Shown: positions 4,749 to 23,712 of the stretch, one piece after another
Layout of the letters: each line of letters begins with the position of its first letter
How positions within the stretch are numbered: position 1 is the first letter of the stretch
Origin: a virus
Lineage: Duplodnaviria > Caudoviricetes
Strand: one strand, 5' to 3'
IMG/VR virus record: IMGVR_UViG_3300037418_002332
DNA: 64,000 nt
The notes under the pieces: model-generated
Told to the model about the DNA's origin: nothing
Seen by the model: the letters and a program-made list of their open reading frames with translations, nothing else
The model's database searches: none
Program-made: the position numbers and the translations under genes

Positions 4749-5804
4749 ATGATGCGTAAAGCTTTTGAGCTGATGAAAATTATGAACGACGCAGGTCGCG
4801 AAACCCGAATTGCTGGTGGTGCGGTCCGTGATACGGTCATGAGACAAAATCCAAAAGACATCGATCTGGCAACTGTCGCCAAGCCCGAAGAGGTTCGGGA
4901 AATCTTCACTAAACTGGGTCACTCAGTTATTGATACTGGGCTGCAACATGGTACTGTTACCGTGGTGATTGATCACATTCCATATGAAGTGACAACTCTG
5001 CGGGTTGATTCAAACCAGGATGGCCGTCATGCTGATGTGACTTTCACTGATAGTTTTGAGGAAGATGCAAAGCGTCGTGACTTCACGATGAATGCTATGT
5101 ACATGGATTACAATGGAGATATCCATGACTTCCATGAAGGGAAGCGTCATATTAATCAACAGATGATTTATTTTGTTGGTGATCCTGAACAACGTATCAA
5201 GGAAGATTATCTGCGCATCCTGCGTTATTTCAGGTTCATGGCTCGATTTAGATTTGGTCATGACTATAATGCGATGTATGCAATGGGTGATTTGCGTATG
5301 GGTCTGCATAAAATCTCCCATGAACGTATCTACTCAGAAATCATGAAGACTGCGCAAGTTAATGACACGCAAGTGTTCTATCTGATGAATAATTCATGCA
5401 TCAGTGAAGTTGTCTTCAATAAGAATCTGAAAACGGAAGAAACAACCCATACGAAACCCGAAATCACTCTGTTCATGAAGGGTATCGGTTCTAATTGGTT
5501 CCGTGAATTCAAGGCTCCTGCTGATGTGATCAAAACGATTGAATGGCATGAAAAGTTTCAGCCTTCCAATTTCAATTTTGATCTGTTCAAAAACGGTGCA
5601 GAACGTATGCGTGAATGGTGTTTCATCAATAATGTTCCTTGGGGTTCCAAGTTTGCTGAGGCACCGAAGTTTCCGCTGACTGGTCACGATTTTCCTCACC
5701 TGAAAGGCAAGGCAATTGGTGACAAACTGAAAGAACTGCAAAAGGTATGGGCTGAAAATAACTTCGAGCCCACGAAACAAGAACTGCTGAAGGAGAATGG
5801 TTAA
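4749..5804 (+). CDS. cca: CCA-adding tRNA nucleotidyltransferase (class II)
   Basis: GGAVRD, DIDLAT, EVTTLR, EDAKRRDFTMNAM, EDYLRILRYFRF. Confidence 0.9.
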   Translation: MMRKAFELMKIMNDAGRETRIAGGAVRDTVMRQNPKDIDLATVAKPEEVREIFTKLGHSVIDTGLQHGTVTVVIDHIPYEVTTLRVDSNQDGRHADVTFTDSFEEDAKRRDFTMNAMYMDYNGDIHDFHEGKRHINQQMIYFVGDPEQRIKEDYLRILRYFRFMARFRFGHDYNAMYAMGDLRMGLHKISHERIYSEIMKTAQVNDTQVFYLMNNSCISEVVFNKNLKTEETTHTKPEITLFMKGIGSNWFREFKAPADVIKTIEWHEKFQPSNFNFDLFKNGAERMREWCFINNVPWGSKFAEAPKFPLTGHDFPHLKGKAIGDKLKELQKVWAENNFEPTKQELLKENG

Positions 5805-8069: not shown

Positions 8070-9407
8070 TTGGTAAAGCAAATATTCCTCAAAGGTAAAA
8101 AAGCAAATGAGGGATTTCTAGGAACTTTTCTTGATAATGATGCGTATGATGTTTTGCTGACCGAAGACGCTGATGTTTACAAGACAGATGCGTTTGGCGA
8201 AGATACCAGCGATAACAATGTTCTACTGAAATTTCGCAAGGGAGTTTTCTCAAAGGAACTCCGAGACGCAGCGTATAAAGGGTTGAAGGATGGCGCAACC
8301 ACATCACATAATCGTGGTATTGCTACTGGTCCAATTGAAGGCGATATTCAACGTCAATCCCCTGATTCAAAAAATGGTCGTGAATGGGTAACTGATTTTC
8401 AGTTTGAAATTTTGAATTTTTTCATTCAACCATCAGTTCTTTCATTGATGGGTGAAGATGAAAAATTGACCCTTGAAAAACTCATTGAAAAATTCAAGGG
8501 CAAGGAAAAAGAAGTTACATCTTTGCGTGGTCACGTATGGTTGACTGAAAAGATCGAACGCAATGAATTCAACTTCATGAACTGGGCACACGAAACTGCA
8601 AAGTTGCCTAAGACTGATCAAATGGAAGAAGCAAGAATTGTGTCTGAGGAATATATTTCTTCAACCAATTATGCAAATCCAGTTTTCAGTGGTGTAGGAG
8701 GTTTTTATGACAGATACCCAAGAATTCCTTATTGTAGAGCAACTGCCTACACAGCAAACAACAAAGAAAAATTTGAAATGTCTGTTCCATTCATTGAAGA
8801 TATTTCAGGATGGTTCCAAAAGTTGTTACCAACCAGATGGGCAGCTCAGAAAAAAGAAATCGTAAAGATTGATCCTGAGTACCATATTGGCAAATCAGTT
8901 TACACGACAATCACAATTAACAAAAATTTCCGTACTGCTTGTCACCGTGATGCTGGCGATTTGGAAGCTGGTTTCGGAAATCTGACGGCATTGTCTGACG
9001 ATCGTGAGTGGTCAGGTGGTTATCTTTGCTTCCCTGAATATCGTGTTGCAGTTGACATTCGACCTGGTGACGTTTTGTTGATGGACGTTCATGAAATTCA
9101 CGGCAACACCCCAATCTCAAAATTGAATGGTGATGCGCCTGAACGAATTTCAATCGTTTGTTATTTTCGTGAAAAAATGAATGGTTGCTCAGCAAAGTCC
9201 TATGAAGATTATCGTGAGAAGTTTGTCATGTGGAATAAGACTGACAAAAATTGCCCAAGCTGGAGAGAAAACTTCAATGGTGTCTATCCAGACATGTGGA
9301 AAAGCGAACGTTGGTACGATTACCTCAGAGCCAATCTTGGTGAGGACTCATTGAAACAATATCACCCTGAGGCATTCACTTCTGATTTGGCCGATTTCTT
9401 TAATTAG
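8070..9407 (+). CDS. TET/JBP-family 2-oxoglutarate/Fe(II) dioxygenase
   Basis: TITINKNFRTACHRDAGD (HxD), RPGDVLLMDVHEIHGNT (H), RISIVCYFRE (2OG Arg). Confidence 0.85.
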   Translation: MVKQIFLKGKKANEGFLGTFLDNDAYDVLLTEDADVYKTDAFGEDTSDNNVLLKFRKGVFSKELRDAAYKGLKDGATTSHNRGIATGPIEGDIQRQSPDSKNGREWVTDFQFEILNFFIQPSVLSLMGEDEKLTLEKLIEKFKGKEKEVTSLRGHVWLTEKIERNEFNFMNWAHETAKLPKTDQMEEARIVSEEYISSTNYANPVFSGVGGFYDRYPRIPYCRATAYTANNKEKFEMSVPFIEDISGWFQKLLPTRWAAQKKEIVKIDPEYHIGKSVYTTITINKNFRTACHRDAGDLEAGFGNLTALSDDREWSGGYLCFPEYRVAVDIRPGDVLLMDVHEIHGNTPISKLNGDAPERISIVCYFREKMNGCSAKSYEDYREKFVMWNKTDKNCPSWRENFNGVYPDMWKSERWYDYLRANLGEDSLKQYHPEAFTSDLADFFN

Positions 9408-9420
9408 AGTATATGCGAAA

Positions 9421-9615
9421 ATGACGAAATTAATTGTTGTGTTAGTGATGGCTTTTTGTAATGCTGGTGGTGGATATCGGTGTGAATATAAAATCACACC
9501 GGTTGAAACTTGGGACCAGTGCATTCAAGCAAGTCAAAATGCTAGAATAACTTTTGGTGCAAAGGATGCATCTATGGCAATTTATTGTTCCTATATGAAC
9601 CCAAACGATCTCTAA
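9421..9615 (+). CDS. small secreted/Cys-containing protein
   Basis: signal-like N-terminus, several Cys. Confidence 0.5.
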   Translation: MTKLIVVLVMAFCNAGGGYRCEYKITPVETWDQCIQASQNARITFGAKDASMAIYCSYMNPNDL

Positions 9616-9628
9616 AAATCTTTCAAAT

Positions 9629-9684
9629 AATTCTTCTGCCAAAGGAAGAATTCGCTTTACTCCATCCAGTCAATAAGCTATAAT
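9629..9684 (+). promoter_or_regulatory. early promoter with upstream dyad
   Basis: AATTCTTC-N8-GAAGAATT-cgc-TTTACT-N17-TATAAT. Confidence 0.75.
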
Positions 9685-9699
9685 GTTTATAGTGATTGG

Positions 9700-9912
9700 A
9701 TGGAGACTTCCGTGAGAAAGAGAACTCTTAAGACCTACAACGTTCGCTTCTTCCTCCAGTATCAGGGCGGAGGCAAGTCAGGTTCGGAATTCTTCGAAGT
9801 TGTAGCCTTCACTGCTGGTGAAGCAATCAACAAAGTTAAGAAGCAGGCTCGTGACGAAGTCTGGTATGACCGTCACGATGGTTCGGCTCAGTTTTCGGCT
9901 GTGAGGCTCTGA
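9700..9912 (+). CDS. hypothetical protein
   Basis: first ORF after promoter; true start uncertain. Confidence 0.5.
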   Translation: METSVRKRTLKTYNVRFFLQYQGGGKSGSEFFEVVAFTAGEAINKVKKQARDEVWYDRHDGSAQFSAVRL

Positions 9913-10112
9913 TGGTCGTTGGAATGGATCATGAAAAGAAAATCGGTGACAAGTATTGGCATCCGACATTACATTGGGGTGAAGTGACCAACGTGGTCTA
10001 TTATCCTGATGGTGATTTCCACTTCTATGTTGTGAAGTTTGATGAAAACTTCGTTGAATGCATGGAAGAGGATATGGAAGAAGACGCTGAGGCAAAACGG
10101 AGAATGCGCTGA
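9912..10112 (+). CDS. hypothetical protein
   Basis: coupled ORF. Confidence 0.5.
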   Translation: MVVGMDHEKKIGDKYWHPTLHWGEVTNVVYYPDGDFHFYVVKFDENFVECMEEDMEEDAEAKRRMR

Positions 10113-10442
10113 TGTCTCTTGAAGCACAAACCAGAGCATACAATGAATATTCTCGTTTGATGGATGCTTCCAAGAAGGCATATGATGTTGGGAATATGCG
10201 CAAATATTACAAGCTTATTGATGAAGCTGAAGATGCCTTTGATTATTATCAGGATATTCAGCGCCCTTGGGAGGACTGAATGAACGACAAAGCATTTATT
10301 TTGCTCTATGTGATAGGCGTTTTGATTTTCGTCATTGGTATCACTCTGGAGTTGACCGCATGGTACCATTGCGGTTTCAGCGGTTGGATTTACGGGCGAA
10401 ACATTTTCTGGGCCTATTGGCTTGGTTATTGCGGAGGGTGAT

Positions 10443-10985
10443 ATGGAAGAGATCGATATTGAGGACATTGCCACCCATCAAAAGTCCATTTATGCTCGAC
10501 GTCCTGCTCGTATGTCCAAACGGACCGAAAATCTTCTAGCCATTGTCACTGGCTCTCTGTTGGCCGAAAAGTCTGAATATGGTGACAAGGATGGTCTTCT
10601 TGACGCAGCTGCAAAGTTTGTCAAGAATATTGAAATCGAAGCACGTTTTTATCGTGCTATTGCTCGGCTCATTGAGCTTGAAACAAAGCTCAATTTGAAG
10701 CGCGCACCAACTCACTTTTTCCGTACAACCAAGAAAGGTGATGTTCTTTTTGTTCACGACGGCACTGAATTCAAAATTGGCAATCCTGATATTGAAGTTC
10801 TCGACAATATGATTCAGCGTTATGAAGAAGACCTTGCTGATCAAGAAGCTGAAGAAGCTTTGTTGGGTTCAATTCGCAAGAAGCTTTCGCTCGACGAAAT
10901 TCGTATTCTTCGTGGTGAACGTGAACCAATTCTTGAAAAATTGAACCACGAAGAAAAAGATTATATTTCAAGAAATTGGGGTTGA
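10443..10985 (+). CDS. hypothetical protein
   Basis: GGAGG SD before ATG 10443. Confidence 0.6.
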   Translation: MEEIDIEDIATHQKSIYARRPARMSKRTENLLAIVTGSLLAEKSEYGDKDGLLDAAAKFVKNIEIEARFYRAIARLIELETKLNLKRAPTHFFRTTKKGDVLFVHDGTEFKIGNPDIEVLDNMIQRYEEDLADQEAEEALLGSIRKKLSLDEIRILRGEREPILEKLNHEEKDYISRNWG

Positions 10986-11053
10986 TTGGGCTTTACTCGG
11001 CTATCTTCTTCATATATGTATGAGTTGTTAACTTAAGATATAAAGAGGATAGA

Positions 11054-11560
11054 ATGATTGTAGAAAGACCAAGACTGTTTTTGGATTCAGACGGTGTGTT
11101 GCTGGATTTTGATGCCAAATTTATGGAATTGTCCGGTGGGTTGTCTTCATCTGAGTATGAAGATACATATGGCGCAAAGCAGTTTTGGAAGTTGATTCGT
11201 GAGCACGATGACTTTTTCTACAATTTACCCTTCATGAAGGGTGGTTGGGAACTGTGGTCTCATTGTCAGCAGTATGACCCAACCATTCTGACCGGTGCTC
11301 CATTTGGAAACTGGGCCGCACCACAAAAAATCCGAGCGGCAAAGGATCGTTTCAATACAGACAAAATCATCGTTTGCTTGTCACGTAACAAGCGTGATCA
11401 TGCTAACCCTGGTGATGTTCTGGTTGATGATCTACTGAAATATAAGCATCTGTGGGAAGAAATGGGCGGTGTCTTCGTTCACCACACTTCATTTGATACA
11501 ACCGTCGCTGCATTGAAGGAAATTTATCATGGCAAAGATTACTCATCAACAAATGTATGA
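11054..11560 (+). CDS. 5'(3')-deoxyribonucleotidase, HAD/NT5C family
   Basis: FLDSDGVLLDF, ILTG, K, LVDD HAD motifs. Confidence 0.85.
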   Translation: MIVERPRLFLDSDGVLLDFDAKFMELSGGLSSSEYEDTYGAKQFWKLIREHDDFFYNLPFMKGGWELWSHCQQYDPTILTGAPFGNWAAPQKIRAAKDRFNTDKIIVCLSRNKRDHANPGDVLVDDLLKYKHLWEEMGGVFVHHTSFDTTVAALKEIYHGKDYSSTNV

Positions 11561-11981
11561 AAATCGATTGAAGGCTGTTGAATATTTGGAACAGCCTCAA
11601 CTTCGCAAGGCTCGTGAACAACTTCGCGATAATAAGGGTGGCCGTTGTTGTCTTGGGCATATGTGCGATGCTTTTCCTGAAGCAATTTCTACGGAAAAAA
11701 ACGGTGGCCAATGGCTTTATGGCAAAGATAAAGAACCCGCTCGTGCTCCAAAAGAACTTGTAGATTTGCTTGGAATGTACACCAGTATTGGTGGCACCAA
11801 AGATTTCAATATGTTTATGAACGATAAAGGTGAATATCCATTTGGCAACACTCCTAGTCTTGCAGAAGTGAACGATCAAATGCGTGTTTCACCTCAGGCT
11901 ATAGGAAAATATTTGCGTTCGGTTATTCTCGGTGGACCAAACACTCCTTGGAAGAAAATCAAGGTGGCAAAGGCTGCTTGA
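11529..11981 (+). CDS. hypothetical protein
   Basis: GRCCLGHMCD motif. Confidence 0.6.
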   Translation: MAKITHQQMYENRLKAVEYLEQPQLRKAREQLRDNKGGRCCLGHMCDAFPEAISTEKNGGQWLYGKDKEPARAPKELVDLLGMYTSIGGTKDFNMFMNDKGEYPFGNTPSLAEVNDQMRVSPQAIGKYLRSVILGGPNTPWKKIKVAKAA

Positions 11982-12015
11982 ACAAAGTCTTCCCTAAATA
12001 GCATTGGAGATTGAA

Positions 12016-12141
12016 ATGAATTTGATCAGTTTTCTTTTCATTGCGATTACAGTTTTAGTTGCGTGGGGACTCGGTTGGGGTGGAGCAACTCTTCATACAA
12101 AATACGAAGAATGGAGACTTAGAAGAAAGTATGGAGAATAG
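12016..12141 (+). CDS. small membrane peptide (41 aa, not in ORF track)
   Basis: MNLISFLFIAITVLVAWGLGWGG...; preceded by CCTAAATA and GGAGA SD. Confidence 0.5.
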   Translation: MNLISFLFIAITVLVAWGLGWGGATLHTKYEEWRLRRKYGE

Positions 12142-12520
12142 ACAGCTAGAATTAGATTTGGGTGATAAGCTTCAAAAATGGGAGTTAATTGCCCGGAAGA
12201 TGTTGGCTACTGTCAAACACAGTAACAACACATCAGTTAGAATTTTTAAGGGTCGTAGACCCGAAGATTGGATACTTGGCACTCGAACTTTTATCTATGA
12301 TACGGATTACACATATGATCATGTTATAGATTGGGAAACTGCCAAATATCTTTATGAAAAAGTTGGAGTTTGGGACTTTTTAGATTCAGTCAAAGGCAAA
12401 CTTGACGAAGAAAAGAAGATGCGACTTCTTGATCAAGTTGTCATATGTAAAAAGTGTGGATGTGAAAAGACGATTGCTGAAATGCAATCACAGGATCATA
12501 AAGCATGTTTTGAGGGATAA
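12131..12520 (+). CDS. hypothetical protein
   Basis: C-terminal CxxC..HxxC. Confidence 0.55.
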   Translation: MENRQLELDLGDKLQKWELIARKMLATVKHSNNTSVRIFKGRRPEDWILGTRTFIYDTDYTYDHVIDWETAKYLYEKVGVWDFLDSVKGKLDEEKKMRLLDQVVICKKCGCEKTIAEMQSQDHKACFEG

Positions 12521-13432
12521 ATGTATTCAATCGCAATGCGGACATATGGACGTTCTAAAACGTTTTCCGAACGCACCTACAAGTTTTTGAAGGCTCAGAC
12601 AGGTCTCGACTTGGCTGAGCAACTTTACATTTTTGTTGCAAACAAAGAGGAAAAGGCTCTCTACGAGGAAGCCTTGAAGGATCAACCATATAAACAAATT
12701 GTTGTTGGTGTCTTGGGTATCAAGGAAGTTACTGACTTCATGTTTCATTTCTTTGGAAATGGCAAGGAAGTCTTTTTCTTTGATGACGATCTTTTTGATT
12801 TCTTTGAATTTCCTGGTCATCCATTGACAATAAAAATCCAAAAAGAATCAACAAATTTGCACAATTATTTACTCGATGGGTTTAAAACCATTCATGAAGA
12901 AGGCATATCAACTTTCGCCTTCCGGTCCATGACCAATCCACTTTTCATCAGTGGAAAAGCTTTCAAGGAAATTCGTCCACACTATTTGGTTGGTTCAGCA
13001 TGGGGTGCTGTGACTAATTTTGAACTCCATACAACCATGTTTGGGCACAATGAAGATATGGAACGTTCAGCCAAAGTTATTGAAGAAGATGGTGGTTCAT
13101 TGGTTTACAATTGGGCTGGTATGATCAGTCATATCAACAATGTTGGCCAAGGTCTCAATGAAGGTGGAATGCAATCATCAGGTGATCGCGGTGATTTTGA
13201 TGATCCTGAATCCAGATATAATCATACAAAGGCTATTGTTGATACTTTGGCGAACAAATCATTGATGCCAAAATATTTCAATGGTCCATTCTACGATGAA
13301 ACTTTGAAAGCTTGGGATTGGAAAATCAAACCATTGAACAGTTTGAGAAAATATCCAATTCGTGAAAAACGTTGGGATGAATATTTCGATTCAGTTTCCC
13401 ATGAAATTGTAACAAATAAATTGCCAATTTAG
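12521..13432 (+). CDS. GT-A glycosyltransferase, TET-associated (TAGT/GREB1-like)
   Basis: IAMRTYGRS, FFFDDD (DxD), NEDMERS, GGMQ. Confidence 0.75.
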   Translation: MYSIAMRTYGRSKTFSERTYKFLKAQTGLDLAEQLYIFVANKEEKALYEEALKDQPYKQIVVGVLGIKEVTDFMFHFFGNGKEVFFFDDDLFDFFEFPGHPLTIKIQKESTNLHNYLLDGFKTIHEEGISTFAFRSMTNPLFISGKAFKEIRPHYLVGSAWGAVTNFELHTTMFGHNEDMERSAKVIEEDGGSLVYNWAGMISHINNVGQGLNEGGMQSSGDRGDFDDPESRYNHTKAIVDTLANKSLMPKYFNGPFYDETLKAWDWKIKPLNSLRKYPIREKRWDEYFDSVSHEIVTNKLPI

Positions 13433-13441
13433 GAGAAATAA

Positions 13442-14125
13442 ATGTGTGGAGTTCTTGGTTACAAGACCATCAATCCTTGCGCAACCGATCTTGAACTCAT
13501 TCGCAATTTGTTTTTGGAAGCTGGTATTCGCGGGCAACATGCAACGGGCATTTCATGGTTAGAAGGCAAAAAAATCAACACCGTTAAACTGCCTGTGGGT
13601 TCTGAAGAGTTTGTTAAACAATTCAATTTCAACAACCTTTTGAATTTAGATGGATCAATCACAATGATTGGTCACATTCGATACTCAACTAGTGACGTTC
13701 GGTTCAATCAACCTTTTTCCAATGATAAATACGCCATCGTTCATAATGGTGTAATCAGTCAAGAATCACCTGAAAATTGGCCTATCAAATGCGAAACACG
13801 CAATGATAGCGAAATGGTGCTACACGCTTTGTCTGATTTTAAAAACTACAAACATCCTCTCGAAGAATTTCCAGATAGCAGTCAAGCTGTTGTTTTTCTC
13901 CAAAATTCATCAAATGTACTTGGTGGTTGGAGAAATGGTTTAAGACCTTTGTGGTATTCATGGGATGCCCATGAGCGATTGATTCTCGCTTCTACTGAAA
14001 ATATCTTGAAACGTGCTGGCATTAAAAATGCAATCAAAGCACCAATGAATGTTGAATTATTCATGGAAGGCGATGAATTATATCAAAATCCATATCATCC
14101 AACAAATAAGAAAGATTTACAGTAA
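13442..14125 (+). CDS. class II (Ntn) glutamine amidotransferase
   Basis: MCGVLG with catalytic Cys2, RGQHATGI, GHIRYSTS, HNGVI, NDSE. Confidence 0.85.
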   Translation: MCGVLGYKTINPCATDLELIRNLFLEAGIRGQHATGISWLEGKKINTVKLPVGSEEFVKQFNFNNLLNLDGSITMIGHIRYSTSDVRFNQPFSNDKYAIVHNGVISQESPENWPIKCETRNDSEMVLHALSDFKNYKHPLEEFPDSSQAVVFLQNSSNVLGGWRNGLRPLWYSWDAHERLILASTENILKRAGIKNAIKAPMNVELFMEGDELYQNPYHPTNKKDLQ

Positions 14126-15037
14126 ATGGGAAAATACGAACCAAGCAATTGGTCATATGGAAGTGAACTTGAATTAGGTGATGTGAAATTTGGGCAAGAA
14201 CTTCCTGAAGGAAATAGTTGGAATACCAAAGATAATACAGTTATGAATTCCAATGGTGTGGCTAATGATCCAAAGGGTGAAATTTGGCCATGGGGTGGTG
14301 AAATTAATTGTAAACCAACTTCAACCACCATTGATCAAACACGCAATTTCACTTATGTATTGAGTGAATTGTCAAAAGAAGCAAAGCCGGTTGTGAATTT
14401 CAGATCAAATCTCCATATTCACGTGCGAGTTCCAGGATTAAAAGATGACCTTGAAGCGGTTAAGAAATTGCAAAGATACATTGATTCCTATGGGCAGGAA
14501 GCATTCGACATCGTTGAGCGTATCCCGAAGCCTGATCCTAGCCAAATGTCCAAAGAAGCTTATGAAGGTGCGTACAAAAGATTCAAGCGTCGTAAAGTGA
14601 GTCATCAATACATGCTTCCAAAAAATCGTTTGGATGAAATGTATGCTGCAACTACTGTCAAGGAATTTTGGGAAGCACATGCACCAATTGGTAAAGATGG
14701 TGCTCGTATGTGGTATTTTAGTCCACGACCAGGCATCAATCTGAGACAGCTTTGGGAAGAAACGGACACGGTTGAATTCAGACATTATCCTGGAACAATT
14801 GATCCATGGGAATTTGATTCATGCGTTCGTTGGTCTAAAGAGTTTCTTTATCATGCACTTTCTGATGAACAAAAAAGACCTCTTGACTTTTACACACCAG
14901 AGGATTATAAGTTTCCAAAGTTCGGTGAATATGATTATGAGTTGGACAAAATCTTTAAGATGACCAACTTTGCTGATAATAATCGTGCAACGGTTAAGGC
15001 AAACATCGAAAAACTTCAAGCGGAAGGCAAAATATGA
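14126..15037 (+). CDS. putative amidoligase (COOH-NH2 ligase, GCS-like fold)
   Basis: YGSELEL, GGEINCKP, LHIHVR, INL, TVEFRHYPGT. Confidence 0.7.
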   Translation: MGKYEPSNWSYGSELELGDVKFGQELPEGNSWNTKDNTVMNSNGVANDPKGEIWPWGGEINCKPTSTTIDQTRNFTYVLSELSKEAKPVVNFRSNLHIHVRVPGLKDDLEAVKKLQRYIDSYGQEAFDIVERIPKPDPSQMSKEAYEGAYKRFKRRKVSHQYMLPKNRLDEMYAATTVKEFWEAHAPIGKDGARMWYFSPRPGINLRQLWEETDTVEFRHYPGTIDPWEFDSCVRWSKEFLYHALSDEQKRPLDFYTPEDYKFPKFGEYDYELDKIFKMTNFADNNRATVKANIEKLQAEGKI

Positions 15038-15603
15038 GTTTAGCTGAATTCATAGAAGAACGCGATAAACATTATTCAAATTTTGACCATTTGAAGAAAA
15101 TTCCAATCGGTGGAAAGATTCTTTTCATTTGTGTTGGAAATATCAATAGAAGTCCAGCAGCAGAGTTGATGATGAGGGATCAACTAGTCGCTCACTCCAA
15201 ACTGAACTGGATTGTATTGTCGGCAGGAATATCAGATAAAAATAAAGGCAAGTTGACTGCCAAAAAAATGCGTGATATTCTTTTGGACATGGGTTATGAA
15301 AACAATTCAGTTCGTTCACAACCTGTTACGCAGGAACTTGTTGATCAGGCTGATGTCATTTTCGTCATGGACGGCGCAAATGAACGCAAGCTAGTGGAGA
15401 AATTTGGTGAGCAAATACTATCTAAAATTCAGTACATCGGAGATTGGAACACAACTTCTTCAAGAACAATACCTGATCCCCATTTTCATAGTGGGAGTGA
15501 GATGCATCGAAAAGTTGCTTATCTTCTTGAGGGCTCTATCCACAATTTAATTGGTTATCACGAAGCCATTTATAATTTCGAAGAGCCATTGAAGGGAAAT
15601 TGA
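15034..15603 (+). CDS. low-molecular-weight protein-tyrosine-phosphatase/ArsC-fold phosphatase
   Basis: P-loop CVGNINRS (CX5R), SAG, IPDPH general-acid motif. Confidence 0.85.
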   Translation: MSLAEFIEERDKHYSNFDHLKKIPIGGKILFICVGNINRSPAAELMMRDQLVAHSKLNWIVLSAGISDKNKGKLTAKKMRDILLDMGYENNSVRSQPVTQELVDQADVIFVMDGANERKLVEKFGEQILSKIQYIGDWNTTSSRTIPDPHFHSGSEMHRKVAYLLEGSIHNLIGYHEAIYNFEEPLKGN

Positions 15604-15604
15604 T

Positions 15605-16393
15605 TTGAAAATTTTCATTCCAACATATAAGCGTGAAGGCAAACAATTTACGTTGGCCGGCATCCCTAAAGGCTGGTTGAATAAGACATATCTTGTCTGC
15701 CCAAAGGAGGAAGTTCATGATCACCCTCTTCGTGTCGATGTGCCTGTTGAGTTCATTGGTTCCATTGCGAAAACACGACAATTCATCATTGATCAAAGTG
15801 ACGATCCTCAAATAGCAATGCTGGACGATGATCTCACGTTCTACAAACGTGATGAAATTGTCAAAACTCAACGTTCTACAAGTTCTGCCATAGTTAATGA
15901 TCTATTTCATTTGATGAACGACTGGTTAGATCAAGGTGATGTATTTTGCGGAACTTCGAATTCATTTATGTCACATGAGAAACCAACTGAATATTACTAT
16001 GGAAAACCATCCCACTGTTGTTTTCTAAATCGTGATTATTTGAAGCAACATAACATCCGTTACGATGCGGTGACATATTTTGAAGATTTCCATGTTCCAA
16101 TTTCCGTAATTGAATCTGGAAAACGTTTGCGTTACAGCGGCGAATATATCTCTATTGAAAAGAAGGCAAACGCTGAAGGTGGTTGCTCAGTCAATCGTAC
16201 CAAGGAAAACAACCGTGAAGCCATGATTGAGCTTCAAAAACTTCATCCAAATTACATCACCTTAAAAGAAGACGAAAAGGCTGAAAATCAAAATCTTCAG
16301 GTTGGATTGAAGATGAGAATTGAGTTCAAAAAATTGTACGATGAATTTGTATTGGGTAAGAAAGCCAAAATTGAATATGGGAGTCTGTTTTGA
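15605..16393 (+). CDS. second TAGT-like GT-A glycosyltransferase
   Basis: MKIFIPTYKR, IAKTRQFI, MLDDD, FEDF, GGCS. Confidence 0.75.
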   Translation: MKIFIPTYKREGKQFTLAGIPKGWLNKTYLVCPKEEVHDHPLRVDVPVEFIGSIAKTRQFIIDQSDDPQIAMLDDDLTFYKRDEIVKTQRSTSSAIVNDLFHLMNDWLDQGDVFCGTSNSFMSHEKPTEYYYGKPSHCCFLNRDYLKQHNIRYDAVTYFEDFHVPISVIESGKRLRYSGEYISIEKKANAEGGCSVNRTKENNREAMIELQKLHPNYITLKEDEKAENQNLQVGLKMRIEFKKLYDEFVLGKKAKIEYGSLF

Positions 16394-16492
16394 TCAATAG
16401 ATATATTGAAATTTTCATAGATGATATCATTCCTTTCATCGTTGGTGTCATTATTCCGTTTTCAATCTTTGGATACATAATGGTGACACATC

Positions 16493-17476
16493 TTGGATAG
16501 ACTCGACACTTTCATTGATTGGTTTGGGACCTCAGTTCGTATCAACGACTGTGATCCGGCTCTATTCATGACCACTTATTTTTTCGATCGATTTGAATTT
16601 AATCTTGAGCAAAAATATTGGTTGTGCTGGATATATGGAACAACCTATCATTGGCCAACCGCATATATCATCTGGAATGAATTTCCGGACTTTGCGTTGG
16701 TTGGTTATGATAAACTCAATGAATGGAATACTGAAAATTTCAAACGTCTGAGATATCAAACGGATACTAAATGGAACAAAGGTCATTTGGCCGAAATGTT
16801 CAAATCATACCGTGATCGATTGAAAGGATATGAGAGTCAAGAAGCTTATTTTAACAAATTGTGCGACAAGCCTCATGATCCATATTCTAATTTTTTGAAC
16901 TGTTATAATGCAATCATCCGTGATTTTCATAAATTTGGCAGATATTCAACTTGGTTCTATTTGCAGATTTTAAAACAATGTGTTGGTCTGAATATCGAAC
17001 CTGAGACATTACTGTTATCTGATCCTGGTTCTGAATCCCATCGTAATGGATTTCTATATGCTATGGGCCGTGAAGATTTGATTGATCAACCGATCACCAA
17101 AGAACAATATCAAGAATTTGAAGAAATTGCTGCAACTGTTTTGAACGAAACCCGAAGACGTTTTCCAGACGTTGCACATAGAATCGACTACTTCGCTATG
17201 GAAACTTGTTTGTGTAGTTTCAAGAAACTATTCAGAACACGTGACGGCAGATATCTTGGTTATTATCTGGATAGACAAGCTGAAGAAATTCAAAAGGTTG
17301 AAAAGGATGGTTGGATCGGCATTAACTGGAAACCTCTTTGGCAATGCCGTGAAGAAATAGTGGATAAAAAATGGTTGACTAATGCTATTGATCCAGCTAA
17401 AATGCATCTATTCCTAAAAACTGGTGATATTCATGCGGAGCTTGAAAAATCCGCATTGGAAGATTTTTTCAATTGA
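16493..17476 (+). CDS. aGPT-pyrophosphorylase / amino acid:DNA transferase (clade 2-like; HhH glycosylase-like fold)
   Basis: DCDP, WIYGTTY, RYQTD, KFGRYSTWFY (HhH-like), SHRNG, METCLCSFKK, RYLGYYLDR. Confidence 0.75.
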   Translation: MDRLDTFIDWFGTSVRINDCDPALFMTTYFFDRFEFNLEQKYWLCWIYGTTYHWPTAYIIWNEFPDFALVGYDKLNEWNTENFKRLRYQTDTKWNKGHLAEMFKSYRDRLKGYESQEAYFNKLCDKPHDPYSNFLNCYNAIIRDFHKFGRYSTWFYLQILKQCVGLNIEPETLLLSDPGSESHRNGFLYAMGREDLIDQPITKEQYQEFEEIAATVLNETRRRFPDVAHRIDYFAMETCLCSFKKLFRTRDGRYLGYYLDRQAEEIQKVEKDGWIGINWKPLWQCREEIVDKKWLTNAIDPAKMHLFLKTGDIHAELEKSALEDFFN

Positions 17477-17488
17477 GGAGAATATAAA

Positions 17489-17752
17489 ATGTCAATTTTC
17501 AAAAACATTACTGAGAAACTGAAGGAAATTAAAGACGTCGCAATCGAAAAGGCTGGCGACGTAGCTGAGCTTGTTGAAGACAAGTACGATGATGCAAAGG
17601 AACTTACTTCCATTGCTATCAACAAGGCTGGCACTGCATATGAAGGTGCTCGTGATTACGCAGCAGAAAAATACGAAGATGCTAAGGAAGTGGCTGGTGA
17701 GGTTAAGACCAAAGCAAAGAAAGTTGCTGACGTAATTCGCGAAAAAGAATAA
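17489..17752 (+). CDS. small amphipathic repeat protein (LEA/apolipoprotein-like)
   Basis: repeats AIEKAG/AINKAG and KYDDAKE/KYEDAKE. Confidence 0.6.
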   Translation: MSIFKNITEKLKEIKDVAIEKAGDVAELVEDKYDDAKELTSIAINKAGTAYEGARDYAAEKYEDAKEVAGEVKTKAKKVADVIREKE

Positions 17753-17997
17753 TGCGTTTTCATTGCGTAAATATTTTTGATTGGCTATCTGATCGTAGAT
17801 ATGCCAGTTATATTAAGAAAACACATTGGCATAAAAAGTTCACTTGGTTTCCAACCAGAATGACAGATGGCGATGGAGAATGCGTTTGGTTTGAAACAAT
17901 CTGGCGCAAAGGCGAATGTGACAGTTACAATGGAACTTGGTATTGGTCATATGTGACACCAGAATTTTATAATTACAATAGGTACAATGATGTCTGA
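17752..17997 (+). CDS. hypothetical protein
   Basis: coupled ORF. Confidence 0.5.
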   Translation: MRFHCVNIFDWLSDRRYASYIKKTHWHKKFTWFPTRMTDGDGECVWFETIWRKGECDSYNGTWYWSYVTPEFYNYNRYNDV

Positions 17998-18328
17998 ACA
18001 ATATTACGAATTATCGATAACTGCTGATACCAATGATGCTGATTATGTGACTGCAACTCATAAAGTTACAATGGAAAAAATCCAGGCTTTGTTGCCTATC
18101 ATTGAAGTGATCAACAAGAAGACACTAGAACTTAAAAACCAACGTGGTTATGGTCATAATTTTCCAAATGGTGAAATTGGCGATCCACGTGAAGTGTATT
18201 CTGAGGAAGAGCTTACTGACGAACAAATTGATTTAATCAGCGATTATTTACCATATGGCGAATATGGTATTCACACAATTACTGACATCGAATATTATCC
18301 ATACCCAGAAAAGGTTAGACTTCTATAA
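17987..18328 (+). CDS. hypothetical protein
   Basis: coupled ORF. Confidence 0.55.
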   Translation: MMSEQYYELSITADTNDADYVTATHKVTMEKIQALLPIIEVINKKTLELKNQRGYGHNFPNGEIGDPREVYSEEELTDEQIDLISDYLPYGEYGIHTITDIEYYPYPEKVRLL

Positions 18329-18732
18329 TGGGATTTGCATACGATTTGAAAAAGAAAACCGCTGAAGCTCAGGCGGATTTGAAAAATAAAGAAGCTCAAG
18401 AACATCGGGAAGCAGTAAGAATTCAAAAGCTTCTGGAAGCTGAACGATCCAAAAAATTCAAACATTCCGTCAAGGAATCAACCAAAAAAATTCTTGAACA
18501 AATGGAAATTGCTGCCGCAGCTGGCAGGCATTCCTTGGAATTTGAACCAAGGACATATTTCAATTATGCTGAAAATTTTCCATTGGCTGATATCGTTCAA
18601 GAATTAAAACGTCACATTGGTGATCCTGAATTCATTTACAAAACACGATCCGAAACTGTGGACGGCGAATGGGTAGACGTCGGCGACTACAGAGAAGGAT
18701 ACACAACTCGCTGGATAGAAATTTCATGGTAA
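18328..18732 (+). CDS. hypothetical protein
   Basis: coupled ORF. Confidence 0.55.
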   Translation: MGFAYDLKKKTAEAQADLKNKEAQEHREAVRIQKLLEAERSKKFKHSVKESTKKILEQMEIAAAAGRHSLEFEPRTYFNYAENFPLADIVQELKRHIGDPEFIYKTRSETVDGEWVDVGDYREGYTTRWIEISW

Positions 18733-19316
18733 AAAGATGCGTTGCAATTGGTGGTGTTCCTGGAACTGGGAAAACCACCTTAATGTTAAAATTCATGGGT
18801 GATTTGACACCAATCACCAAACTTCGAAACTTGGTTAATGGCCATGTTTATAAGGATCGCGTGGTCCTTGGAGATTACACCAAGGATGGGTCATTCAAAG
18901 GCACTGATACATTCTCAATGGCTGTCCAACCTGAAGCTGAGGAATTCTTCAAAGAAAACAAGTTTCATGTGGTGTTTGAAGGTGATCGAATTTTCAATTC
19001 AAAAATGCTCAACTTCATCCAAGACAATGGATATGAGCTTTTGACTATCATTATTGAAGCTCCTGAGAAAATGTTGAAGGAACGTTATGCTGAACGTGGT
19101 TCAGATCAATCCGAAAAGTTTTTGTCTGGACGTAAAACGAAATATGAAAACATTAAAAACGATGCCAGTTTAAAGGTTTACACGGCTGTTCATGAAGAAC
19201 CACTCGATACTGTGAAAATCGCAGTTGCGATGTTAAAATTCATTAATGATGGCATCATCGATGATGGTACATTGAAAGAAGTCAAGCACGATTCACTGGA
19301 CGACTTTTTCTCATAA
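18726..19316 (+). CDS. P-loop nucleotide kinase of DNA-hypermodification type (5-hmdU DNA kinase-like)
   Basis: GGVPGTGKTT Walker A, GTDTFSMAVQP, VVFEGDRI, ERYAERGS. Confidence 0.75.
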   Translation: MVKRCVAIGGVPGTGKTTLMLKFMGDLTPITKLRNLVNGHVYKDRVVLGDYTKDGSFKGTDTFSMAVQPEAEEFFKENKFHVVFEGDRIFNSKMLNFIQDNGYELLTIIIEAPEKMLKERYAERGSDQSEKFLSGRKTKYENIKNDASLKVYTAVHEEPLDTVKIAVAMLKFINDGIIDDGTLKEVKHDSLDDFFS

Positions 19317-19322
19317 CCTAAA

Positions 19323-19364
19323 TTCTCCTTGGGTATAAATAACTGAAACTTATTCCAAGGAGAA
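19323..19364 (+). promoter_or_regulatory. T4-type late promoter TATAAATA inside an SD-sequestering hairpin
   Basis: perfect TTCTCCTTGG / CCAAGGAGAA arms; TATAAATA at 19334-19341. Confidence 0.8.
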
Positions 19365-19372
19365 GAAGCACT

Positions 19373-19951
19373 ATGCCATTATGGTCAAAATCAGGTCAAA
19401 GACCTAAGTATCTTGCTGCGGCAGATCGTAGAAATATCATCGCTACACCAGAAGGCTGGGTGAGACGTATTCAATACACCGGCACTGGTGGTATTGTTCG
19501 TAAAAAAGACGAAATCCTTGTTCATATTACCAACCTTTCTGGATTGGTTTCAATGGGCAATCCAGATATCGTTGAATTGTATGTTGCAAACTCAAGCGGT
19601 GGCACCACTATCAAGAGAAACCTTGTCAATAAGGTTAATGTGGTCTATAGTGAACCAATCTCAATTGCCACTTCTCCATCCATTCTCAATATGAACGTTG
19701 CAAACGTTGCTGGTGGTTCAGCAAAGGTGGCTGTCTCAGATACCAACAAAGCTAACATCGTTAACGCAAACAATACGCTTGTTTTCAGTTTCACTCCAAC
19801 CGTCGCTGGCACTTATAAAATCCAAGCGCAAACGCTCACTTCCAATGCCGCACACAAGGTTTACGGCATCTATGGTGGTGCGTCAGAAACCGCAAACACC
19901 GTTATCAGCGCCTCAGTTTCCAACACCCTATCAACTTTCGTGGTTGGCTAA
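19373..19951 (+). CDS. probable virion structural protein
   Basis: MPLW N-terminus, beta-rich, late promoter upstream. Confidence 0.6.
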   Translation: MPLWSKSGQRPKYLAAADRRNIIATPEGWVRRIQYTGTGGIVRKKDEILVHITNLSGLVSMGNPDIVELYVANSSGGTTIKRNLVNKVNVVYSEPISIATSPSILNMNVANVAGGSAKVAVSDTNKANIVNANNTLVFSFTPTVAGTYKIQAQTLTSNAAHKVYGIYGGASETANTVISASVSNTLSTFVVG

Positions 19952-20023
19952 CACGTTGATTTCATTAGGTTTCTAAAAAATCTTAAGAAATCTTCTTTTT
20001 TCTTCGGAACTGACACCTATATT

Positions 20024-20060
20024 CCGCGTTATCGCCTTACCGTGATGACGCGGTTTTGTT
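20024..20060 (+). terminator. GC hairpin plus U-tract
   Basis: CCGCGTTATC...GATGACGCGG-TTTTGTT. Confidence 0.55.
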
Positions 20061-20088
20061 ATGTAACTAGTGAAAAGGAGTCAATGCC

Positions 20089-20610
20089 ATGAATATGAAT
20101 CGTGAACAGCTCATTCGCTCGATTGAAACTGCCCGTGTTCGGGGCGTCGTTGTGCCGACCGAAGTTTTCGGACGCAAGATCTTCGTCAAGACCACGAAGC
20201 ACGATATCGTCGCTCAAATCCGGAACGAGTTCAAGGAAGCGCAGCCTACCAATATGCGTTTCCGTATCGACCAGGAAGCCTCGCTCGCGATCGTCGAGCC
20301 TGCCACCGGCAAGCGCGGCGGCAAAATCCATGACCATCTGAAGGCGGAACCTGGTGTTCCTGTTCCGAAGCGCGGTCGTCCTTTCTCCAAGAATCAGCCT
20401 CCTGCCGAACCGGAAAAGACGGAAAAGAAGGCCGCAAAGGTCCTTCCGTTAAAGAAGGTCGGCACCAAGGGAACTGGTTTGACCGCTCTTCCCAAGAATG
20501 AAGAAACCAAGACCCAGCCTTCTGGTGCCGCCGATCCGAACCATCCGAGTGGCGGTGGTGAAACGGGGCCAGCCAAGACCGAAAATGGAGACAACAATAC
20601 GCAGCACTAG
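20089..20610 (+). CDS. hypothetical basic protein with AT-hook-like KRGRP and P/K-rich tail
   Basis: GGAG SD, GC-richer codons, PKRGRP motif. Confidence 0.6.
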   Translation: MNMNREQLIRSIETARVRGVVVPTEVFGRKIFVKTTKHDIVAQIRNEFKEAQPTNMRFRIDQEASLAIVEPATGKRGGKIHDHLKAEPGVPVPKRGRPFSKNQPPAEPEKTEKKAAKVLPLKKVGTKGTGLTALPKNEETKTQPSGAADPNHPSGGGETGPAKTENGDNNTQH

Positions 20611-20625
20611 GCTGTAACTCGGCAA

Positions 20626-20655
20626 TGATCAGGGACGCCCACAAGTGTCCCTGAT
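20626..20655. terminator. hairpin, possible terminator
   Basis: ATCAGGGAC...GTCCCTGAT. Confidence 0.45.
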
Positions 20656-20675
20656 CCAACATCTGGGAGGCAGTT

Positions 20676-21353
20676 ATGTTATTGGTTCATGGTACTTCAT
20701 TGCCTGTGGCTCATCTTGCTATTCGTCAAGGATTGAGACCTAGAGGAAAATCCGAATGTCGTTGGGGTGGTTTCCCAACATCACCTGATGTCGTTTATCT
20801 CACCAATGCGTATGGCCTGTTTTATGCCATCAACGCAGCTGATGATAGCGATCAGGAAGTTTGTTTGATCGAAATTGATACTGATGTCATCGAGAAAATG
20901 ATGGTGGCTGATGAGGATACTCTTGAACAAACTTATCGTATGAATCGAAAGAATCCTTTGTATCCATTGGATTTTGATCCTGCATGGAATACTGCCAAAC
21001 GAACCCAGTGGTTTGCCAAAAATCTCATCATTGGGAAAACTCTTGGATATGATCACAAATGGTCATTGAAAAAGATGGGAAATTGCGCTCATTTTGGTTC
21101 AATTCCAAAAGATGCCATCACAAGAATTGTGTCAATTCAAAATGTCAATCACATGTGGTGGCTTCAATTTTTCGATCCCACCATTACGATGGCAAATTTC
21201 ATATTCCTTGGTGAGCAGTATCGTACATCACAGTTGGTCCTCATGGGACGTATGGAAGAAGCGATCGAGTTTTCCGGTCCTGCGAACCGCGATTATGTGT
21301 GGTGGCTTGAAAACCTCATTCACCCAAATCGTAAGGTGATTTACGAGCGCTAA
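20676..21353 (+). CDS. putative ADP-ribosyltransferase-fold protein
   Basis: LVHGTS..IRQGLRP, VYLT, FYA, LIEID pattern of H-type ART folds. Confidence 0.5.
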   Translation: MLLVHGTSLPVAHLAIRQGLRPRGKSECRWGGFPTSPDVVYLTNAYGLFYAINAADDSDQEVCLIEIDTDVIEKMMVADEDTLEQTYRMNRKNPLYPLDFDPAWNTAKRTQWFAKNLIIGKTLGYDHKWSLKKMGNCAHFGSIPKDAITRIVSIQNVNHMWWLQFFDPTITMANFIFLGEQYRTSQLVLMGRMEEAIEFSGPANRDYVWWLENLIHPNRKVIYER

Positions 21354-21472
21354 ATTAGGTCATCCTAATCTACGTAAAATTTCATTAAAACCTTAAATAG
21401 TGCTTTACTTAATTCAGCCGTCAAGCTATGTAGAACGTAGGGACGGGTACAATTGCTTCGGGGTGATTATAA

Positions 21473-21805
21473 ATGATATCCGATATGATTCTTATCGGCA
21501 GGGACATTGAGTTCTTGCCGGGTGTTGAAGACTTTAATTCCTACGTTGAATGCGGTATGCGAGCTACCATTGTTGATATTCAGCCTTATCCAGAAGATGG
21601 GTTGTTTGAAATCACTTTGGATTATCGCAAGTTCGAAGTATGGAATTTTCAGTTTGAATCCATGCGTTTCACTCATCGCAGCCGGGTACTGTCATTTCGT
21701 GACGCGTTTGGCTACTGCGAAGAGGAGACCTATTGCGTTTCAGACCACTTCGATCTGTTCAAACCTCTTGATGCGTTGGAAACGATCAAAATCGTTCTCA
21801 ACTGA
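21473..21805 (+). CDS. hypothetical protein
   Basis: ORF after promoter-like TTTACT at ~21404. Confidence 0.55.
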   Translation: MISDMILIGRDIEFLPGVEDFNSYVECGMRATIVDIQPYPEDGLFEITLDYRKFEVWNFQFESMRFTHRSRVLSFRDAFGYCEEETYCVSDHFDLFKPLDALETIKIVLN

Positions 21806-21860
21806 AATCTTCTATATCTTAGAAGAAAGTCCTTTACTTTTTGAAGCGAATCAAATAAGC
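21805..21860 (+). promoter_or_regulatory. early promoter-like element with upstream dyad
   Basis: AAATCTTC-N9-GAAGAAAG-tcc-TTTACT; -10 degenerate. Confidence 0.5.
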
Positions 21861-22141
21861 TGTTCCTGTGATACAGGAAACAAGCTTACCAAAAGCCTGG
21901 GGGTGGTACTGGATTGGTTCAATCTTCAAATGGGGATGTGTCATGAGTACAGTTTTGTTAGAGCGTTCTGAAATTAACGACTTTTTGAATTGTATGCACA
22001 ATGATGTTGGGGCTGATGTGTATCAGACAACAAAGGATAATCTCCCTCGTGCATACTTCGTGAAAGATTTTCAAATTTTACCAATTGAGGTGGGCTACGA
22101 TCCGCCTCAAATTTTTTATCGAAATAATGGAGAAGAGAATA

Positions 22142-22375
22142 ATGAGCAACTGGTTTTCCGATGCCTCAAACGGAGGAGAATTCAACAAGAACGTTGAAAT
22201 CGCAAGTCGTTTCGACGGATTGTTTAATCTTTGGAAAAAGGTTGTTCGGTTCGATGAAAAAGAAGGATACACCAGTTATTGGGAAGTCATCGGAGTTTTT
22301 GAGGACGAAGGCAAAGCGAAAGCTGGCAAGGAAGCCTATCGTGCGCAAATCAAAGCAGCAAAGGCAGCAAAATAA
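22142..22375 (+). CDS. hypothetical protein
   Basis: start moved to ATG 22142. Confidence 0.5.
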   Translation: MSNWFSDASNGGEFNKNVEIASRFDGLFNLWKKVVRFDEKEGYTSYWEVIGVFEDEGKAKAGKEAYRAQIKAAKAAK

Positions 22376-22376
22376 A

Positions 22377-22709: not shown

Positions 22710-22752
22710 GCTGCGGCGCATTCCTTTCAACTTGATTTAGGAGAATATTGAA

Positions 22753-23685: not shown

Positions 23686-23712
23686 ATCTCCCTTAGTTTC
23701 GGTGAGGTTGGG

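Follow-up and report, generated by a model that had tools for sequence, protein, structure and literature searches.

The window examined here, a stretch of 64,000 nucleotides corresponding to bases 73,197 to 137,196 of the 247,119-bp virus record IMGVR_UViG_3300037418_002332, carries between positions 8070 and 19316 a cluster of eight enzyme genes that probably serves the post-replicative hypermodification of thymidine in the DNA of a T4-like phage, with the DNA-acting enzymes recruited by the sliding clamp; within this explanation, we infer both the order of the steps and their chemistry. The record contains T4-type genes and has a CheckV completeness of 97%. The phage is uncultured, and its DNA is present in several soil and rhizosphere metagenome runs; no RNA data set containing the stretch was listed. 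A megablast search of 50,697 phage records with the 11-kb region as the query gave no match. DNA hypermodifications decide phage survival against restriction and CRISPR, and they are also a source of enzymes for DNA labeling and sequencing chemistry. The type of pathway is already published, and what the present cluster adds to it is a set of polymerase-type tails, evidence on the order of the steps, and a rare pair of glycosyltransferases.

All of the genes in the region lie on the plus strand. The first-pass annotation, which was made from the sequence alone, had listed eight enzyme genes there, and each of them was recovered as an open frame on the plus strand at the start that it had been given. 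The family names held as well, with six of the eight products scoring over the Pfam cutoffs and the amidoligase and first glycosyltransferase assigned through homologs and folds; the proposed comparison with TET_JBP, TAGT, aGPT-Pplase, and Ploopntkinase models gave matches for the TET enzyme, the second glycosyltransferase, the amino acid:DNA transferase, and the kinase. Its reading of the region as a DNA base hypermodification locus is supported by the DNA-acting enzyme families and the clamp-type tails, and its suggestion that thymine (T) is oxidized directly to 5-hydroxymethyluracil (5hmU) stands as the most likely route. The order of steps that it proposed is not the favored one, its novelty was overrated, and it did not mention the C-terminal tail common to several of the enzymes. 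The eight genes are as follows.

8070..9407, plus strand: TET/JBP-family 5-methylpyrimidine dioxygenase, 445 aa (Pfam Tet_JBP, phrog_24024, residues, fold)
12521..13432, plus strand: divergent TAGT-like (GT-A) glycosyltransferase, GT1 (Atlas features, structure; no clamp tail)
13442..14125, plus strand: stand-alone class II (Ntn) glutamine amidotransferase, GATase (GATase_6; candidate ammonia supplier)
14126..15037, plus strand: GS-like carboxylate-amine ligase of the Amidoligase_2 family (homologs with PF12224; fold)
15034..15603, plus strand: low-molecular-weight phosphotyrosine-phosphatase-family enzyme, LMW-PTP (LMWPc, motifs)
15605..16393, plus strand: TAGT-family glycosyltransferase, TAGT2 (TAGT, E value of 1.3e-9; phrog_842, 1.8e-30)
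16493..17476, plus strand: amino acid:DNA transferase, AADT, formerly aGPT-Pplase clade 2 (ADDT, phrog_3271)
18726..19316, plus strand: P-loop DNA 5-hydroxymethyl-deoxyuridine (5-hmdU) kinase of the 5-HMUDK type, 196 aa (Ploopntkinase3, Walker A)

Dioxygenase, kinase, and transferase and the predicted target base

The dioxygenase matches Tet_JBP (PF12851) with an E value of 4.9e-23 (81.6 bits against a cutoff of 34.9) and phrog_24024 with an E value of 1.3e-134. It consists of a conserved N-terminal region of about 200 aa, a double-stranded β-helix core with H292, D294, H344, and R359, and a C-terminal clamp-type tail. The four core residues are invariant across 24 homologs and align with the HRD (HxD), H, and R of TET2, with HxD...H being the Fe(II) triad and the arginine being the 2-oxoglutarate-binding residue. 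Its AlphaFold2 (AF2) model (pLDDT of 81) has fold matches to NgTET1, TET2, and CcTet at an E value of 1e-10. An Atlas search with residues 1 to 205 gave scores of about 0.8 to TET clusters only, and the N-terminal region received no separate assignment. From these features, the enzyme is predicted to convert thymine to 5hmU in DNA.

No match to the ThyA family (PF00303), to which dUMP and dCMP hydroxymethylases belong, or to C5 cytosine methyltransferases (C5-MTs; PF00145) was found in the whole 247-kb genome, and both profiles were likewise without a match in a complete relative (G018, with terminal repeats) and in four other records. The absence of such genes had been pointed out for the window, and it extends to the entire genome. 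The only thymidylate-synthase-type gene of the phage encodes ThyX (PF02511, E value of 7.6e-9) and is located outside the window (G000:C1:1491-1925). Because the phage has ThyX but neither a ThyA-family enzyme nor a C5-MT, thymine is the only 5-methylpyrimidine that it can itself supply to the dioxygenase. According to O'Toole et al. (2026; PMC13229309), phage 5mYOX enzymes without a neighboring C5-MT gene oxidize T in vivo and in vitro; here, too, no cognate C5-MT was found in the genome or the five relatives, and the AADT and kinase are cluster partners of the dioxygenase. With a dUMP hydroxymethylase absent and a TET/JBP enzyme present, the source of 5-hmdU would be like that in a published TET-fed variant (PMC8989533). 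Post-replicative oxidation of T to 5hmU is the most likely route, which the two missing families, the presence of ThyX, and the clamp-type tails all fit. In the pathway proposed here, ThyX would make dTMP and T would be incorporated normally (step 1), the dioxygenase would oxidize T in DNA to 5hmU (step 2), and the P-loop kinase would phosphorylate 5hmU to 5-phosphomethyl-dU (step 3).

The kinase matches Ploopntkinase3 (PF18751) in the frame from 18669 to 19316 with an E value of 5.3e-7 (29.8 bits against a cutoff of 27). Its true start is most likely the ATG at 18726 chosen in the first-pass annotation, because the resulting length of 196 aa fits the homologs (193 to 197 aa); in this form, the Walker A motif GVPGTGKT occupies residues 10 to 17. 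The AADT matches ADDT (PF18724) with an E value of 2.2e-19 (70.5 bits against a cutoff of 26.2) and phrog_3271 with an E value of 2.2e-44, and it has relatives in 379 phage records, ViI-like phages among them. It is predicted to swap the phosphate of 5-phosphomethyl-dU for a nucleophile. PDB sequence searches with the AADT and with the amidoligase returned chance matches only. A hypermodification derived from T by way of the TET enzyme, kinase, and AADT is highly probable.

Two points weigh against T as the target: specificity for T over 5-methylcytosine (5mC) is not readable from sequence, and a host C5-MT could supply 5mC. If the dioxygenase oxidized 5mC laid down by the host, the glycosyltransferases would make glycosyl-5-hydroxymethylcytosine (glycosyl-5hmC), as in published phage clusters of a C5-MT, a TET, and a glycosyltransferase, and the substrate of the kinase and AADT would be 5hmC or some other molecule. 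TAGT enzymes and the phage TETs of clades A and B act on 5hmC and 5mC (PMC8256090), and some phage T-dioxygenases oxidize 5mC too (PMC13229309). However, the lack of a C5-MT extends to five related records, one of which is complete, and the constant partners in the cassette, the AADT and the 5-HMUDK, are thymidine-pathway enzymes. In addition, any glycosyltransferase is found in only 10 of 84 related loci collected through the amidoligase, and O'Toole et al. (PMC13229309) report an accompanying C5-MT for only 6% of 5mYOX pathways. Host-derived 5mC as the substrate is accordingly very unlikely, and oxidation of T is retained below.

The two glycosyltransferases differ in how readily they are assigned. 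TAGT2 scores 38.7 bits against a TAGT cutoff of 27.5, whereas GT1 matches Pfam TAGT under the cutoff (E value of 0.009; 16.4 bits). Because BLASTP revealed no pairwise similarity between GT1 and TAGT2, GT1 was assigned through ESM Atlas features (0.98) and through its Atlas model, which has a TM score of 0.81 to viral clusters carrying TAGT. TAGT genes account for the 10 loci above, and GT1 and TAGT2 occur together, as in the window, in only one of the 84 (L006); two TAGT glycosyltransferases in one cassette are therefore rare.

A polymerase-type tail and the sliding clamp

The tail L-x-D-F-F-[N/S] ends only 4 of the 2629 frames of the genome, namely, those encoding the TET enzyme, the AADT, the kinase, and the 846-aa family-B DNA polymerase (gp43), whose tail reads SLEDFFN. 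The three tails within the window are the following.

9384..9404, plus strand: TET C-terminal tail DLADFFN, candidate sliding-clamp-binding motif
17453..17473, plus strand: AADT C-terminal tail ALEDFFN, candidate clamp-binding motif
19293..19313, plus strand: kinase C-terminal tail SLDDFFS, candidate clamp-binding motif, among kinases in this lineage only

The tail of the gp43 polymerase aligns end to end with that of RB69 gp43 (...KKASLFDMF), and that RB69 C-terminal peptide is the one bound to the RB69 clamp in PDB 1B8H. T4 gp33 and gp55 place a similar linker-borne motif on the clamp face carrying the C terminus (PMC7892883). Among relatives, tails were counted in unique sequences with a looser form of the motif, set 2 containing only sequences that are absent from set 1.

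DNA polymerase: 9/9 with the tail in set 1, 15/15 in set 2
TET: 44/61 in set 1, 57/64 in set 2
AADT: 24/53 in set 1, 29/56 in set 2
TAGT: 8/10 in set 1, none found in set 2
Kinase: 2/48 in set 1, 0/44 in set 2
GATase: 0/55 in set 1, 3/68 in set 2
Amidoligase: 0/72 in set 1, 0/46 in set 2
LMW-PTP: 0/59 in set 1, none found in set 2
Other open reading frames (ORFs) of at least 100 aa: 7/1323 in set 1, 12/832 in set 2

By these counts, only families whose members should come into contact with DNA show an enrichment of the tail. In addition, the enzyme tails co-vary with the polymerase tail of their own phage in other phages, including Stenotrophomonas phage DLP6 (polymerase ATLDSFFA, TET ATLGDFFV), Caulobacter phage Cr30 (polymerase ADLSSLFD, glycosyltransferase-like protein SDLSKLF, TET GATLF), L058 (polymerase STLENFF, TET SSLEAFF), and others. 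Tails of this kind on hypermodification enzymes did not turn up in literature searches. Five records with tail-less TETs were also searched for a gp43-type polymerase; none was found, which is uninformative because these records are fragments.

The genome encodes a homolog of the gp45 clamp (G000:220564-221220), and a complex model of this protein with TET residues 396 to 445 received a score of 0.63, compared with 0.01 for the best control; 51 of 78 solved complexes reach the mark applied to such models, as do 2 of 108 mismatched pairs. Contacts are at least 98% concordant among the three runs, and the pLDDT of the partner is at least 62. In the model, TET residues 433 to 445 contact clamp residues 32 to 39, 103 to 111, 198 to 200, and 213 to 218, which lie on the C-terminal face of the clamp. 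Together with the sequence of the tails, this model suggests that the tails probably bind the clamp, which would give a concrete, testable answer to the question of how post-replicative enzymes reach DNA efficiently. In the proposed mechanism, the tails of the TET enzyme, AADT, and kinase, being the same as that of gp43, would dock on gp45 and so bring these enzymes to newly made DNA.

Several observations weigh against clamp binding. The pass of the complex model may reflect its likeness to the solved RB69 gp45-polymerase peptide complex rather than binding, most kinases of the relatives have no tail, and the tail of TAGT2 looks degenerate or shortened in the window, where the protein ends in ...IEYGSLF (GSLF at the tail position), while its closest relatives end in ...GLEDFFN or ...GLDEFFG. 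A recent preprint (10.64898/2025.12.06.692756) did not reproduce an earlier claim that T4 alpha-glucosyltransferase binds gp45, although its enzymes carried C-terminal His tags. The shared tail might then be real and serve another hub protein, turnover, or packaging, with the enzymes finding DNA unaided; the likeness of the model to a solved complex, the T4 result, and the tail-less kinases speak for such a role. However, the tail not only matches but also co-varies with each phage's own gp43 tail, the polymerase tail aligns with the clamp-bound RB69 gp43 peptide, and the enrichment is confined to enzymes expected to touch DNA, so that a function of the tail other than clamp binding is unlikely.

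With clamp binding as the preferred reading, the clamp could stand in for ParB, which is proposed to hold other phage T-dioxygenases on DNA. This replacement is suggested because neither the 247-kb genome nor any of 27 related records gave a match to ParB_N (PF02195); the flanking ORFs were also without a Pfam match. On the other side, phage ParB-like proteins may be too divergent for detection with PF02195. A line of enzymes (the thymine dioxygenase, the transferase, the glycosyltransferase, and, in this lineage, the kinase) riding on gp45 clamps behind the fork in place of ParB, with an N-acyl-aminomethyl-deoxyuridine that has not been described before and is possibly glycosylated as the product, is put forward tentatively and falls somewhat short of an even call. 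If true, and if the present TET enzyme is of that clade, clamp riding might explain why ParB-less clade C1 enzymes showed no activity in Escherichia coli without phage partners.

Certain amidoligases have an ending of another kind. In one sub-lineage (L046, L050, L051, L053 to L055, L059, and L060), they end in an acidic E-E-[S/G]-F-F-[E/G], which is like the clamp tail but has no leucine, and amidoligases outside this sub-lineage do not have that tail.

Conservation of the module and the order of steps

All six core genes are present in 47 of the 84 amidoligase-centered loci, and 36 of these 47 have the order TET-GATase-amidoligase-LMWPc-AADT-kinase. The module often adjoins T4-type replication and head genes (gp23, UvsW/UvsY, and gp43). 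Compared with its relatives, the window has the two glycosyltransferases in addition, as well as about 3 kb of small ORFs after the TET gene. This spacing, which leaves the TET gene 3 kb upstream of the others, counts against a single unit insofar as co-regulation is not certain. An action of the enzymes on RNA, protein, or surface polysaccharide would agree with the fact that the GATase, amidoligase, LMW-PTP, and glycosyltransferases are general metabolic families, none of which is tailed here. However, TET_JBP, AADT, and 5-HMUDK are DNA-base-specific families, the related cassettes sit among replication genes, and the polymerase-type tail on the TET enzyme, AADT, and kinase points to the replication fork; a non-DNA substrate is therefore most improbable.

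The GATase matches GATase_6 (PF13522) with an E value of 4.6e-9 (36.8 bits against a cutoff of 27), its N-terminal M1-C2, R80, and N102-G103 (HNG motif) are invariant, and its relatives in IMG/VR number more than 573. Its C terminus has a conserved D-[L/Y]-Q motif in the last few residues (KKDLQ here and PDLQNV and VDYQIGV in relatives, L006-L173), and this motif may be a docking motif for a partner enzyme. Its stop (14125) abuts the start of the amidoligase gene (14126). The amidoligase of the window has no Pfam match at an E value of 0.01; many of its 302 homologs carry PF12224 (Amidoligase_2), at 50 to 74% identity. The best fold matches of its AF2 model (pLDDT of 94.8) are all glutamine synthetase (GS), glutamate-cysteine ligase (GCL), or YbdK carboxylate-amine ligases, with weak scores (E values of 2e-3 against the PDB and 4e-4 against Swiss-Prot; TM scores of about 0.4 to 0.5). 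Invariant positions comprise the GxExE strand and 43 others. The enzyme is predicted to carry out the amide-forming step.

A further 80 loci were collected through the GATase, and in these, the slot between the GATase and AADT genes is variable. In 49 loci, it is occupied by an amidoligase (about 291 aa), and no LMW-PTP accompanies it; in 21, by a GNAT acetyltransferase (PF00583, 211 to 237 aa) and no amidoligase; and in 3, by an amidoligase with an LMW-PTP. The GATase is kept beside the AADT when the GNAT occupies the amidoligase slot. Because the GNAT and amidoligase, which are both amide forming, share a slot while the GATase stays with the AADT, a transfer of ammonia followed by N-acylation is favored. 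The swap leads one to expect 5-aminomethyl-dU as an intermediate, with glutamine as the source of the ammonia. PaMx11 reportedly makes 5-acetylaminomethyl-dU via 5-aminomethyl-dU and a GNAT. By analogy, a GNAT-type cassette would yield the PaMx11 base, and an amidoligase-type cassette would attach some carboxylic acid to the amine.

In the proposed pathway, the AADT would displace the phosphate with a nucleophile that is most likely ammonia from the adjacent Ntn GATase, giving 5-aminomethyl-dU (step 4), and the GS-like amidoligase would use ATP to join a carboxylic acid to this amine, giving an amide-bearing base (step 5). At this stage, the LMW-PTP would probably dephosphorylate the newly attached group or intermediates that had not reacted. 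Finally, one or two sugars would be transferred by the two TAGT glycosyltransferases, with either remaining 5hmU (as in base J) or a hydroxyl on the new side group as the acceptor (step 6). On the cassette comparisons, we regard ammonia first (5-aminomethyl-dU) and N-acylation second as an evenly balanced call.

The same enzymes could work in the order given by the first-pass annotation, in which the AADT attaches an amino acid and the amidoligase converts its carboxylate to a carboxamide with ammonia from the GATase, neutralizing the negative charge much as the PLP (pyridoxal phosphate) decarboxylases do in the M6 and ViI pathways. AADTs characterized so far reportedly use amino acids (glycine or serine), not ammonia. 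The abutting GATase and amidoligase genes, whose products would fit glutamine-dependent amidation of a carboxylate, are neighbors in 36 of 47 full cassettes, and GS-like ligases typically use ammonia or small amines, with GS and PuuA being among the fold matches. Some contigs have an amidoligase and an AADT without a GATase, which indicates that another amine source is usable. In opposition to this order, the only possible synthetase partner of the GATase in the 21 of 80 cassettes with a GNAT and no amidoligase is the AADT, and a GNAT and an amidoligase in one slot are most simply two ways to acylate one amine. Aminoacylation followed by amidation is thus not favored and is judged rather unlikely. 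PMC8989533 shows N-alpha-GlyT and O-SerT as intermediates.

The LMW-PTP matches LMWPc (PF01451) with an E value of 1.9e-24 (87 bits) and contains C33-VGNIN-R39-S40, the CX5R(S/T) P-loop, and D148-P149 of the general-acid loop. The enzyme accompanies the amidoligase subfamily found here, and fusions of the two occur in some phages (P0063, P0072, P0085, and P0092). The idea that the LMW-PTP is a constant partner of the amidoligase was dropped in view of the 49 sister cassettes that have an amidoligase without LMWPc, and these cassettes also weigh against the pathway as drawn in that the role assigned to the LMW-PTP is a guess.

A separate cassette lineage (L062 to L066, L074, L077, and L078) has TETs of 474 to 496 aa that end in ...NYW[GY]TEN or otherwise, with no clamp-type tail. 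Two TET genes are present in L062, L063, L074, L077, and L078, and L074, L077, and L078 also have two amidoligases.

Neighboring genes and known systems

Among the small ORFs at 9421 to 12520 and 17489 to 18732, Pfam and PHROG revealed families of unknown function and one recognizable gene:

11054..11560, plus strand: HAD-type 5'(3')-deoxyribonucleotidase-like (NT5C-like) gene (phrog_2643, 3e-27), downstream of the TET gene and ahead of the other cluster genes

Relative L006 has an NT5C-like gene in the equivalent position, the product of which matches NT5C weakly; whether this gene is a member of the pathway is uncertain. Immediately after the kinase gene, a 192-aa ORF (19373-19951) is kept in L007 with an identical C terminus (...SNTLSTFV). 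Upstream of the cluster, positions 4749 to 5804 encode a CCA-adding enzyme/poly(A) polymerase head-domain protein (PF01743, E value of 3e-32). Downstream, positions 22753 to 23685 encode an NMT1_3/periplasmic substrate-binding-like protein (E value of 5e-14), a homolog of which is found in L007 in the equivalent relative position.

The cluster is closest in content to published clade C1 clusters. Lee et al. (2021; PMC8989533) described metavirome contigs in which TET_JBP replaces the dUMP hydroxymethylase beside 5-HMUDK, AADT, amidoligase, and amidotransferase genes, and according to O'Toole et al. (2026; PMC13229309), the neighborhoods of clade C1 5mYOX enzymes include GATases, P-loop kinases, and AADTs. 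The suggestion that this combination could lead to an undescribed nucleoside was thus overrated as to novelty, since TET_JBP with a kinase, an AADT, and a GATase or amidoligase is already present in these two sources. The published clusters share with the present one like enzyme families in a single cluster, the lack of both a dUMP hydroxymethylase and a C5-MT, and the logic by which T is oxidized in situ to 5hmU, which then passes to the kinase and AADT. Both papers note the GATase and amidoligase as partners of unknown function. In the parts of the two papers that were searched, there was no mention of the LMW-PTP partner, the TAGT pair, or the shared tail. The published C1 subclass with this machinery is ParB dependent, whereas the present genome and the 27 related records have no ParB_N match. 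In one published example, 5mYOX176, the conserved core extends to residue 280, whereas the window TET has 445 aa, with its conserved N-terminal region of about 200 aa and polymerase-type tail.

The cultured phages M6, ViI, PaMx11, PhiW-14, and SP10 share with the window the use of a kinase and then an AADT on 5-hmdU in DNA. These phages rely on a dUMP hydroxymethylase that supplies 5-hmdU before replication, whereas in the window the TET/JBP enzyme is predicted to generate it after replication; their tailoring enzymes are radical SAM, PLP decarboxylase, and FAD enzymes, whereas those of the window are the GATase, GS-like amidoligase, and LMW-PTP. PaMx11 is said to end its pathway with N-acylation of 5-aminomethyl-dU by a GNAT, the enzyme type that fills the amidoligase slot of the sister cassettes. 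The base J system of kinetoplastids, with JBP1/2 and the JGT glucosyltransferase, follows the scheme proposed here of TET/JBP oxidation of T to 5hmU and addition of a sugar by a glycosyltransferase. In contrast, the window belongs to a phage and has TAGT-family enzymes, and the kinase/AADT branch dominates its relatives; no JBP-type DNA-binding domain was identified in the window TET.

Cultured relatives offer a way in to the final base, with Cr30 having a TET, an AADT, and a glycosyltransferase-like gene and DLP6 having a tailed TET and no AADT. In Cr30 (L003, KF301602.1), positions 12001 to 25000 contain, within 13 kb, the TET, the AADT (E value of 1.3e-52), and a weak TAGT-like glycosyltransferase with a polymerase-like tail, and the same 13 kb contains an inositol-1-phosphate synthase, a dATP/dGTP diphosphohydrolase N-domain protein, and the Acb3 CBASS inhibitor. 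Most of these genes are annotated as hypothetical, and the TET is misannotated as an "SNF2 DNA repair protein."

The tails resemble the motifs of T4/RB69 gp43, gp33, and gp55 in being short, acidic/aromatic, linker-borne C-terminal peptides whose predicted seat is the hydrophobic patch on the clamp face with the C terminus (PMC7892883), and a DNA-modifying enzyme carrying one would ride behind the fork, as DNMT1 does through its PIP box and PCNA. They differ from known clamp motifs in their occurrence on a dioxygenase, a transferase, a kinase, and a glycosyltransferase, cases of which were not found in literature searches. The claimed binding of T4 alpha-glucosyltransferase to gp45 shares with the present proposal the idea of a phage DNA-modifying enzyme working with the clamp during replication. 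That claim is based on in vitro data, and the examined passages of the preprint (10.64898/2025.12.06.692756) name no polymerase-like tail for the alpha-glucosyltransferase, whereas the present case draws on a tail common to several enzymes, with co-variation seen over hundreds of sequences.

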